Shown here: positions 1 to 3,000 of the stretch, in pieces
How positions within the stretch are numbered: the stretch's first letter is position 1
How the letters are laid out: each line of letters starts with the position of its first letter
Origin: a virus
Taxonomy: Duplodnaviria > Heunggongvirae > Uroviricota > Caudoviricetes
Length of the DNA stretch: 19,022 bases
IMG/VR virus record: IMGVR_UViG_2718218402_000001
Coordinates: 1 to 19,022 of that record
Reading direction: 5' to 3' (one strand)
Position numbers: made by a program

Positions 1-3000
1 TTACCATGAACTTCCTGTGTACTGACTTGTGTTCATAATAATATTTTTGTGTTTAAACTCAATAAAGTCACAAAAATGATTGTAATCATGCAATGTAGTA
101 AAATTAAAATATTTCTTAATTCCTTTTCCTAATCCATCATAATATGGATGAGCATCTACTTTTTTGTGCATAAAAGACAACCCCTCAAGTAGAGCCGGAT
201 GATTACTACGATTAACAATTATTGCACCATTTTCAATATTTACACTGTCATTACGACGATCAACATGTACTGCAATTCCATCTGGAGCACGCATTACACC
301 AAGCTTACCTGTAAGCATCATATCCATATCAAGATATATACACCCCTCACCGGATAAAATCCCATGATTCTTTGTGTTATCTGTGCATCTAAAGATTTCT
401 CCTGCCTTCAATAAGGCTAAATTTCTGAAGAAGTCAAACCATGTATGATCTCTCTTCTCTGCATACATATAAATCAAAGAATCCTGCGCATTTGAAATTT
501 TACTCAACTCTTTCTCCAACAGATTCAACAAGTATTCATCTCTTTTGGCTTCAGAGCGTAACTTTTGCTCACATATAATATCATGATAAATATCTGATAG
601 TTTTCTATCATACATGCTGAAATCAACATTTTCCCGATAGATTATCATTATATTTTCAAAATCTTGTTCCAGTTTTGAAAAAGCAACCTTTTGGCTGAAT
701 GAAAAATCGCCATCAACAAAAACACCTATCATACGCTCACTCTCTATCCTTGCCGTATTCATGACATTATCTAAATAGGGATGCTGCTTAGTATTAACTA
801 TTGGAACCTCATCTTTCTTATATTGTTCAGGATTAGGTTCAAACCACTGAAAAAGAATAGGCGTTTTTTCATCAATGACCTTTAACTCATATTCCTTTCC
901 TGCAAAAGAAACCGTTTGACAGGGGGAACTCTGCACTATATTTGCTGAGTTATGGAAAGTTGTCCTTATCGGTGAAAGCATTCGTCGTCCTGTTTATCCA
1001 TATTTTCTTCACAACTAACTCTTTAATCTATTAATTATATTGGCATACTCAACCACAAAACCTCCAGCAGTTTTGCCACCTTTGGTTTCCTAACAAACAT
1101 CCACCGGACATGACAACAAAAACCGGAGCCGGACTCCGGTTTTTGTGAAGCTGTCGGCTATTTCATCCCGCCAATATTTTCCCACGTCCCGTCAGCACGC
1201 AGGATTTGCAGCGGTCTTACCACACACTGTATCTGCTTTTTATCCGCATCCAGTATCACCACCTGCGTGATTACCCTGGCCTGCTCCGGGATAATGCCAT
1301 TCTCATCTGACTCCAGAATGTCTGCCGGTCCCAGTCGCAGTTGTACTGTAAGCGACTGCCCGTGTTCACGGCCATCATGCTTTCCGCAACCGCACAGACG
1401 CTGCATAAGTTTTTTTAGTATATTCATGTCATTCTCCTGTTCTGCCTGTATCACTGCCCACTTCATCCAGCCCCTTGACATCCTGCCACGGCCCGTCACC
1501 AAACCTGACCTGCAAATGCTGAAAAAACCCCTGAACCCGTGTGGCATCTTTGGGGTCAAGAAAGGTCAGTCCGGTGATGAGTGCGCCATCTGTATCCGGG
1601 AACCAGCCATTGCTGTTTGTCTCAATAATGTTTCCCGGCCCCAGACGGAACCGTATTTGTGTCTCCCCCGGGTCGCCCTTCGGTCCCTGAGGTCCGGTTG
1701 CCCCCACCGGGCCAGCCGCACCTGTTTCTCCTTTCGGTCCCTGTGGGCCTGCCGGGCCTGCCGCACCGGTATCTCCCTTTGGACCCTGTGGACCTGCATT
1801 TCCCGTCAGACCGGTCTCTCCCCGCTCTCCCATGTCACCTTTCGGCCCCTGCGGGCCTGCCGGACCAGCATCACCTGCCGGTCCCCGTTCACCGGTTGCC
1901 CCTGCCGGGCCGGTGTCGCCACGCTCTCCTTTATCTCCCTTCGGCCCCTGAGGACCCGCGGGCCCCTGTTCCCCCTTTGGCCCGGGAGGCCCCACCACGG
2001 TCGGGATTCGGTTTACGGCTTCTTCCGCCGCTATCCTGCTTTGTTCCGCTGACTGTGCGCTTTCTGCTGACTCCCGGGCTTTTTCTGTTGCGGTCGTTGC
2101 ATCCCTGGCTGCATTACCGGCTGCACTTTCTGCCGTCTTTTTTGACAACTCAGCATCTGCTGCACTTTGTAATGACTCACTGGCTTTTTGAGCGGCCTCA
2201 GAGGCCGAGGACGAGGACGCTTCCTCTGACTTCTTTGCAGCGGCTGCACTTTCTGCCGCCTGCCGGGCTGACTCCGATGCCTCCCCTGCTGAAGTGTCAG
2301 CATTTGCCGCGCTCGCTTCCGCCTGACTGGCTGATATGCCGGCATTCCTCGCGGACGTCTCCGCCTCTCCGGCATTCTTCTTCGCCTCCTCAGCGTGACG
2401 CGCCGCTTCTTCCACCATCAGTTCAAAACGACGCAGTGCCTCCGGCCGGACGTCATCCTCCGACATGGCACCGAGAAAATCATTCAGCGTACCGGGTTGA
2501 GAATCTTCATACACGGTGATGGTCCCGGCATGTGACGGCGGGAATCCTTCCACCAACAGAATGACGCTGTACTGACCGTACTCAACGTCCATGCTGTAAC
2601 GACCGGCTTCATCCGGATTTTCAGAGGCCACCGTGTTCACCACCACCGTGCTGCTGGTCCGTCTGGCTTTCAGTTGAATGGTGCAGTTCTCTACCGGTTT
2701 TCCTGTGCCGTCTTTCAGCACACCTGAAATCTTTACTGCCATATTCACCCCACAAAAAAGCCCGCCTGAATCGGCGGGCTGTCATAACACTGTGTTACCT
2801 GGCTAATCAGAATTTATAGCCAACACCCACGATGAACCCGTCAGTGCGCCAGTCGCCACTGCCGGAGCCTTCATAAGCAATATCAATGGCCACGGATTCG
2901 GTCGGGTTAAACTGCACGCCAGCCCCCCACGCCAGAGACGTGTTGCTGTGGCGACCGTCATCACTTCCGGTCAGCACATCGTGCGTTTTCCCCTTGTTGT

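Follow-up and report, generated by a model that had tools for sequence, protein, structure and literature searches.

The small open reading frame (ORF) that directly follows the side tail fibre gene stf in the prophage studied here encodes a second copy of the fibre's C-terminal knob that stands apart from the fibre gene and is maintained by selection. The window, meaning the whole stretch of 19,022 nucleotides (nt) that was analysed (IMG/VR record IMGVR_UViG_2718218402_000001, Caudoviricetes), is the tail end of a lambda/434-like prophage of attaching-effacing E. coli and is 100% identical to NZ_CP148391. Judged by its sequence, the product of 89 amino acids (aa), called sPfC in the following, is a diverged paralogue of the PfC domain at the C-terminus of Stf, and its gene occupies the position that the unrelated tfa gene has in lambda. 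The small ORF is already known as an annotated family and from papers on Shiga-toxin (Stx) phages, and its detection here is a re-discovery. The additions of this analysis are the integrity of sPfC and the selection acting on it, its conserved N-terminus, junction and terminator, the block shared between phages, the lack of DNA homology between the two copies, and the virion peptides.

Homology between the small ORF and the Stf tip

The first-pass annotation, made from the sequence alone, had described the small ORF as a diverged duplicate of the Stf C-terminal domain that aligns with the end of Stf at about one-third identity. BLASTP, profile matches in both copies and shuffled controls agree with this description. 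Residues 28-88 of the small ORF were aligned with Stf residues 365-427 at 21/63 identical positions (33%) and 60% positives (E=6e-11). The Smith-Waterman score of 101 lies 18-20 standard deviations (sd) above those of 2000 shuffles, both with the full Stf (mean 27.3, sd 4.1, z=17.9) and with its last 85 residues (mean 23.3, sd 3.9, z=19.7). The Pfam family PF06820 (Phage_fiber_C), which has a curated gathering threshold of 25 bits, is matched by residues 28-89 of the small ORF with 118.9 bits (E=1.2e-34, model positions 1-64 of 64) and by Stf residues 365-428 with 120.1 bits (E=5e-35, whole 64-position model). In a five-sequence alignment, the columns R31, P34, I37, G44, P47, I53, T54, L59, D60, L73, Q74, D79, G80 and W82 are invariant, and the RLGP, LD, LQ and DG.W motifs that had been pointed out as shared are all among them.

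The features of the fibre unit, in the order of transcription, are as follows.

1429-2748, minus strand: stf, side tail fibre of the EPclA type (PfN, coiled coil, collagen, PfC), 439 aa (PF08400, E=6e-69; PF01391; PF06820)
1660-1992, minus strand: collagen-like Gly-X-Y domain of Stf, residues ~253-363 (PF01391 matches; matches to collagen chains in the PDB)
1465-1656, minus strand: PfC domain of Stf, residues 365-428, the paralogous copy (PF06820, E=5e-35)
1428-1438, minus strand: stf/sPfC junction, AGGAG, GAA, TGA, C, then ATG (sequence)
1158-1427, minus strand: small ORF sPfC, 89 aa plus stop, free-standing Phage_fiber_C protein of the WP_001023432.1 type (PF06820, E=1.2e-34; phrog_576; PGAP)
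1377-1427, minus strand: sPfC residues 1-17, MNILKKLMQRLCGCGKH, basic amphipathic helix followed by a CxC motif
1347-1376, minus strand: variable linker of sPfC, residues 18-27
1161-1346, minus strand: PfC domain of sPfC, residues 28-89 (PF06820 model positions 1-64)
1112-1146, minus strand: intrinsic terminator directly 3' of sPfC, CAAAAACCGGAGUCCGGCUCCGGUUUUUGUUG (RNA fold)
1108-1978, minus strand: collagen domain, PfC, sPfC and terminator as a mobile 871-bp block (95.5% identity to 933W)

A Pfam scan of the small ORF at E<=1 returned PF06820 alone and no match to Caudo_TAP (PF02413), and the NCBIfam search returned no match. Because no Tfa-type family was detected in the small ORF, the gene pair is not the stf-tfa arrangement of lambda, as had been proposed from the first inspection.

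The upstream gene is called side tail fiber both by the Prokaryotic Genome Annotation Pipeline (PGAP) and in the annotation of phage 434. The small ORF itself bears several names. PGAP calls it "phage tail fiber C-terminal domain-containing protein", the phi24B genome record describes it as "phage fiber C superfamily; contains a RLGP motif", and the phage 434 record OL657226 labels its copy, CPT_434_24, "tail fiber assembly chaperone". Over its full length (residues 1-89 against profile positions 1-89, E=2.2e-59) it matches phrog_576, an 89-position 'tail fiber protein' family made of sPfC-type proteins. Mondal et al. (2016) described ORF68 of Sp5 as an 89-aa fibre-C polypeptide and a non-essential late gene, and proposed a "reservoir" role for it (PMC5155283). 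The small ORF downstream is unmentioned in the study of the fibre protein EPclA (ECs2717) by Ghosh et al. (2012; PMC3368898), and the small protein is likewise unmentioned in the text of a second proteomics paper on phages of enterohaemorrhagic E. coli (PMC12502783).

Selection, translation signals and virion peptides

The population sample comprised 85 loci from IMG/VR plus phage and genome records, and sPfC is intact at 270 nt in 83 of them, with 67 nucleotide alleles. The ratio of nonsynonymous to synonymous substitution (dN/dS), computed pairwise over these alleles by the Nei-Gojobori method, is 0.136 for the whole gene and is unevenly distributed along it. Residues 1-17 are strongly conserved (dN/dS 0.057) and the PfC part is similarly constrained (~0.07-0.08), whereas the linker, computed on residues 18-28 and comprising few sites, reaches ~1.8. 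The common protein polymorphisms concentrate at residues 19, 23, 24, 25 and 28. The PfC domain of Stf is under weaker constraint than that of sPfC, with a dN/dS of ~0.24-0.29. In two loci (L067, 348-2963, and L047), an IS66-family element, whose three ORFs encode 225, 115 and 523 aa, sits precisely between the stf stop and the sPfC ATG, and GAATGAC-ATG still adjoins sPfC.

The N-terminal 17 residues of sPfC have no counterpart in Stf. They carry a net charge of +4 and have a hydrophobic moment of 2.19, which is reached by 2.3% of shuffles, and the LCGCGK motif is kept in the Citrobacter rodentium homologue (P0070). Neither a signal peptide nor a lipobox was found in sPfC: there is no uncharged run of more than 5 in the first 25 residues and no PS51257-like pattern, and the maximum 9-residue hydropathy is 0.63. 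A reading of 'LCGC' as part of a lipoprotein or signal peptide, including an exclusion lipoprotein of the Cor/Llp type, was considered and rejected because no lipobox or signal pattern is present.

The small ORF had been noted to start 1 nt past the stf stop behind a good ribosome-binding site, and this holds: AGGAG (1434-1438) lies 6 nt before the ATG (1425-1427), with the stop TGA (1429-1431) and the spacer C (1428) between them. At least 80 of the 85 loci have an identical AGGAGAATGAC-ATG sequence. Moreover, the last 11 stf codons are near-invariant even at synonymous positions (pS 0.011 vs 0.11 in the PfC codons), and this synonymous collapse fits selection on the translation initiation region of sPfC. 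RNA structure at the junction was not significant (z=-0.85), and a consensus scan found no promoter-like site upstream of sPfC. Directly downstream lies a terminator, a GC-rich hairpin of 14 bp with a U run behind it (-29.1 kcal/mol, z=-2.9), which is found 3' of sPfC in almost all 85 loci and also in 933W and phage 434, where it is annotated. The junction has the layout of translational coupling. Since the Shine-Dalgarno (SD) sequence lies inside the last stf codons, the gap is 1 nt and the terminator follows right after the gene, sPfC is probably translated by coupling. Slippage into the -1 frame on the A AAA AAA stretch of sPfC codons 4-6 was considered as well and rejected; translation would end at a stop 11 codons later, and 933W lacks this stretch.

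Two sPfC-unique peptides, ADGTWENIGGMK (residues 78-89) and VITQVVILDADKK (residues 52-64), are contained in the supplement of a cryo-electron microscopy and proteomics preprint on phi24B (doi 10.64898/2026.04.10.717836). The small protein is thus made and is present in gradient-purified particles, which answers the earlier suggestion to look for it in virion proteomics, albeit at trace level. Among the matches listed, each peptide has 3 peptide-spectrum matches (PSMs) vs 2,267 for the fibre gp61, in a sample that had been stored for six months beforehand. By a crude estimate, sPfC is thus present in virions far below fibre stoichiometry. The authors of the preprint grouped both peptides under gp61-gp59 fusion models with the label "Spike or just gp59?" (doi 10.64898/2026.04.10.717836). 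A peptide spanning the stf/sPfC junction was not found among the matches listed for phi24B.

Distribution and recombination of the fibre unit

The two copies of the domain occur together. Queries with Stf PfC and with sPfC each retrieved 296 records from the phage collection, with identical name breakdowns, and the matched phages include long-tailed Stx phages, the short-tailed 933W, VT2-Sakai/Sp5, phi24B, and also cdtI and 434. Over 871 nt, the window matches the 3' end of gene L0121 of podovirus 933W, together with L0122 and the terminator, at 95.5% identity, while the remainder of the two fibre genes shows only repeat-level matches of ~70% within the collagen region. As this block is common to otherwise different fibre genes, the collagen domain, PfC, sPfC and terminator move together. 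The collagen-PfC-sPfC unit is also found in phage 434, phi24B and cdtI.

The small ORF was found in 697 of 5426 complete E. coli genomes (~13%), and those that have it hold a median of 11 copies. Beyond E. coli, it was found only in E. albertii and Citrobacter rodentium. A search covering one genome per species returned E. albertii only, plus a Xanthomonas contig. This contig (L086, NZ_JPLE01000138.1, 725 bp) belongs to the assembly of Xanthomonas pisi DSM 18956, carries an sPfC gene of 92% identity and almost certainly stems from E. coli DNA that contaminated it.

Among 1.84 billion representatives, a profile search found 84 clusters only, mostly fragments of the same E. coli genes, and sPfC-type knobs are almost exclusively proteins of ~89 aa. 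No full-length fibre with an sPfC-type tip was present among the matches from 5.8 billion clusters or 1.84 billion representatives. Two chimeras were found. One (P0066, 4 member sequences) joins collagen repeats directly to the sPfC knob (GERGPADILESDENG), and the other (P0122, a single cluster representative) joins the N-terminal part of sPfC to the C-terminal part of the Stf PfC; both joins appear to lie at short microhomologies. A 565-aa protein (P0143) has four tandem PfC-like units of ~77 aa each, with short Gly-X-Y stretches between them and a long collagen region after them. It looks like a true distant relative, the only one, and its four tandem units suggest that a PfC knob can sit inside a continuing fibre and is not confined to the terminus. 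The multi-repeat matches P0140, P0163, P0164 and P0167 were judged spurious, P0167 after a check (SprB/PKD repeats) and the others by eye.

At the DNA level, the longest exact word shared by stf and sPfC is 11 nt and the best stretch has ~68% identity over 53 nt, which is too little for homologous exchange between the two. Linkage equilibrium was found between the protein alleles of Stf PfC and those of sPfC (Mantel r=0.02 over 68 loci besides the window), with 59 distinct pairs formed from 30 x 30 protein alleles. As the two lie 1 nt apart, the ~11 copies in a genome must recombine very often.

The transcription order in the window, all on the minus strand, is J, lom, stf, small ORF, terminator and NleB-family effector gene. 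The neighbouring features are as follows.

7798-8478, minus strand: tail gene I
7080-7607, plus strand: Cu/Zn superoxide dismutase SodC, on the opposite strand between I and J (PF00080, E=4e-32)
3473-6946, minus strand: J
between J and lom: hairpin
2807-3406, minus strand: lom
2759-2780, minus strand: terminator-like hairpin in the lom/stf interval (consensus scan; the equivalent site of phage 434 is annotated as a terminator)
1-981, minus strand: NleB-family type III effector arginine glycosyltransferase, 3' of the stf-sPfC terminator (NF011909, E=1.5e-201)

As hairpins bound both ends, stf and sPfC form a two-gene unit. The sodC gene is a moron within the tail operon, and the NleB-family gene is split by IS1 in NZ_CP148391. 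Phage 434 (L087, OL657226.1, 18238-23462) has the same layout of J, lom, stf, sPfC and terminator, and behind these lie an NleB pseudogene and an intact gene for an NleC-like effector; a phage isolated from Paris sewage in the 1950s thus already carried type III effector cargo. Two antisense ORFs of 286 and 261 aa (1659-2519 and 1267-2052, both plus strand) oppose the collagen-coding region, and corresponding hypothetical proteins appear in the annotations of phage cdtI (orf22) and phi24B (vb_24B_37c). These ORFs probably just reflect the GC-rich Gly-X-Y repeat and are not genes.

Possible roles of sPfC and comparison with known systems

Among the explanations that the first-pass annotation had offered, a free-standing copy of the tip fits best. 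sPfC could be a real late protein that assists the collagen-like fibre tip as an accessory, non-essential partner, a reading in which our confidence is about evenly divided. The protein would consist of a PfC knob that became a free-standing paralogue long ago and that the variable linker connects to the conserved basic helix and CxC head, and its gene would be transcribed with stf from the late operon. By homology with the Stf PfC, it would form a small trimeric all-beta knob, bind the distal end of the collagen-like fibre transiently or weakly, and either aid assembly or stability of the tip or modulate its binding, possibly affecting adsorption, without being a stoichiometric virion component. 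Co-occurrence and co-transfer with the collagen-PfC segment argue for the partnership with the fibre, which would involve contact between sPfC and Stf. Regarding the fold, both AlphaFold2 (AF2) runs predicted a helix at residues 3-12, a disordered linker and six beta strands at low confidence, and the secondary structure alone was reproducible. The all-beta PfC in these models agrees with circular dichroism (CD) evidence of little helix in PfC (PMC3368898). By sequence, no structure of a PfC domain was found in the PDB, and AlphaFold failed on the PfC domain also in the hands of the phi24B authors (doi 10.64898/2026.04.10.717836).

Several observations weigh against an accessory partner of the tip. 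The AF2 monomer models are unreliable, with mean confidence (pLDDT) values of 51.8 for the 5-sequence alignment and 54.9 for the 15-sequence alignment that included the four P0143 repeats, and Foldseek with these models found no match in the PDB at E<=0.001. A crude per-residue estimate from the proteomics gives ~0.3 sPfC copies per virion, a value that also fits simple contamination. No site-site association between Stf PfC and sPfC was significant, and their linkage equilibrium gives no sign of allele-specific co-adaptation. In addition, recombinant EPclA, Col-PfC and PfC trimerise and the collagen helix refolds, all without sPfC (PMC3368898). Finally, ORF67 of Sp5 is essential while ORF68 is classed as non-essential (PMC5155283), and as the phage without ORF68 was classed as infectious on K-12, any helper role is dispensable in the laboratory.

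These last two observations also bear on an obligatory chaperone, the part of the free-standing copy proposal that did not stand. A required tail-fibre assembly chaperone, functionally equivalent to lambda Tfa as annotated for CPT_434_24, is suggested by the tfa-like position right after stf, the probable translational coupling, the OL657226 annotation and the trace presence in virions, which suits a protein that mostly leaves the product. However, folding of the fibre modules without sPfC, the dispensability of ORF68 next to an essential ORF67, and the absence of similarity to Caudo_TAP or other chaperone families make it a reading of low probability; a helper needed only under natural conditions is likewise a weaker rival of the accessory partner. 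Also unlikely is a soluble mimic of the tip, in which sPfC trimers freed at lysis, or leaking in lysogens, bind a cell-surface ligand and so hide the receptors of debris or sister lysogens, by which progeny phage would be protected or superinfection excluded. Its sub-stoichiometric amount in virions and its dispensability for plaques fit such a non-structural role, and further points in favour of the mimic are the strong selection at the protein level and the location at the edge of the tail module beside lysogenic-conversion cargo (lom, NleB, NleC); cor-type exclusion genes sit at a similar place in other lambdoid phages. On the other hand, sPfC cannot reach the envelope before lysis because it has no signal peptide or lipobox, there is no promoter-like site upstream, no match was found in the PADLOC defence models, and at only 33% identity to the fibre tip, binding of the same ligand is not implied. 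A broader version appears improbable to us: sPfC would be made equimolar with the fibre, be released at lysis and act off the virion, either by occupying the ligand of the fibre on debris or neighbouring lysogens or by reversibly capping the PfC knob. In the capping variant, the conserved basic helix of sPfC and the acidic Stf tail would mediate the contact.

As a reservoir cassette, the small ORF would be spare coding sequence that replaces the fibre tip by recombination, as proposed by Mondal et al. (PMC5155283) and likewise considered in the first-pass annotation. The two rare chimeras, the median of 11 copies per positive genome and the frequent recombination in the region are in line with it. 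Yet the two copies lack a shared exact word longer than 11 nt, the chimeras are rare and apparently joined at microhomologies, and full-length sPfC-tipped fibres are missing from the matches of the database searches described above; furthermore, a silent copy would not show a dN/dS of 0.06-0.07 or conserve a private N-terminal motif, SD and ATG. We therefore regard the cassette as improbable. A +1 frameshift near the stf stop that fuses Stf to the small ORF, giving two knobs in tandem, seems very improbable. The frame of the small ORF is open for 44 codons upstream of its ATG (a 133-aa ORF at 1158-1559 that overlaps the stf 3' end), but this is unremarkable in GC-rich sequence. The stop UGA-C preceded by the SD-like AGGAG loosely recalls the prfB +1 site, although the GAA before the stop should be unable to re-pair in the +1 frame. 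Fusion models of gp61-gp59 were searched by the phi24B authors, and P0143 provides a precedent for tandem units in one fibre protein, but both detected peptides lie inside sPfC and none spans the junction among the matches listed. No recognised slippery site is visible at the junction, and Mondal et al. also reported no frameshift-prone sequence to fuse ORF68 with the fibre gene ORF67 (PMC5155283). The strictly conserved SD and ATG of the gene itself and the strong selection on its N-terminal motif speak for separate initiation. Least probable of all is that the small ORF is a remnant without function, left over from a tandem duplication, a further suggestion of the first inspection, or from a former fibre 3' end that recombination has displaced. 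In favour of this, mosaic tail-fibre genes often have such displaced 3' fragments behind them, the linker shows no constraint and the Sp5 homologue is classed as non-essential. Nevertheless, the selection data (83/85 intact copies, dN/dS 0.136 overall and 0.06-0.07 in two separate modules) exclude a remnant as the present state. Start, SD and terminator are conserved, the gene is kept across siphoviruses and podoviruses, E. albertii and C. rodentium, and its peptides were detected. The remnant reading is thus effectively refuted for the present state, while the gene may have originated in this way.

The collagen-PfC fibre and its companion gene are found in most Stx phages, long- and short-tailed, and in the classic phage 434, and the structural study of phi24B lists as open both the ligand of the lateral fibres of Stx phages and their help in the spread of stx. 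A companion protein that is conserved, expressed and dispensable in the laboratory offers a cheap and specific handle on this fibre question. Should the off-virion mimic be true, it would tune when and where the particles of about eleven co-resident prophages adsorb, and sPfC would represent a novel type of phage-encoded factor that masks receptors or gates the fibre and that arose from the fibre itself.

With respect to known systems, sPfC is the same gene as Sp5 ORF68 (ECs1229-type), 933W L0122, phi24B 'gp59' (ADN68460.1), CPT_434_24 of phage 434 and WP_001023432.1. The genes of Sp5, 933W, phi24B and 434 share 92-100% identity with it, the length of 89 aa and the stop-C-ATG junction behind a gene for a collagen-PfC fibre. 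The difference lies in the upstream fibre, which here is a short EPclA-type siphovirus stf and in 933W, Sp5 and phi24B a 645-aa podovirus lateral fibre. The PfC of EPclA, to whose type the Stf of the window belongs, was characterised by size-exclusion chromatography with multi-angle laser light scattering (SEC-MALLS) and CD as a trimerisation module that renucleates the collagen triple helix (PMC3368898). sPfC has the same Pfam domain and shares its invariant core residues, but it is only 33% identical, has neither the collagen stalk nor the acidic 11-residue tail, and possesses a private N-terminus with the basic helix and CxC motif. The foldon of T4 fibritin, collagen NC1 and the intramolecular chaperone domains of endosialidase and T5 pb1 are, like PfC, small C-terminal modules for trimerisation and nucleation of the fibre; no homology to PfC was detected in them, and they act in cis, with no separate gene copy. 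Lambda Tfa and the other Caudo_TAP proteins (also Mu U, P2 G and T4 gp38) resemble sPfC in their small size and in the slot directly downstream of the fibre gene, and a helper or tip-associated role may be common to both. However, Tfa-type proteins are unrelated to the fibre that they serve, whereas sPfC, which has no sequence relationship to Tfa, is a paralogue of the fibre tip itself.

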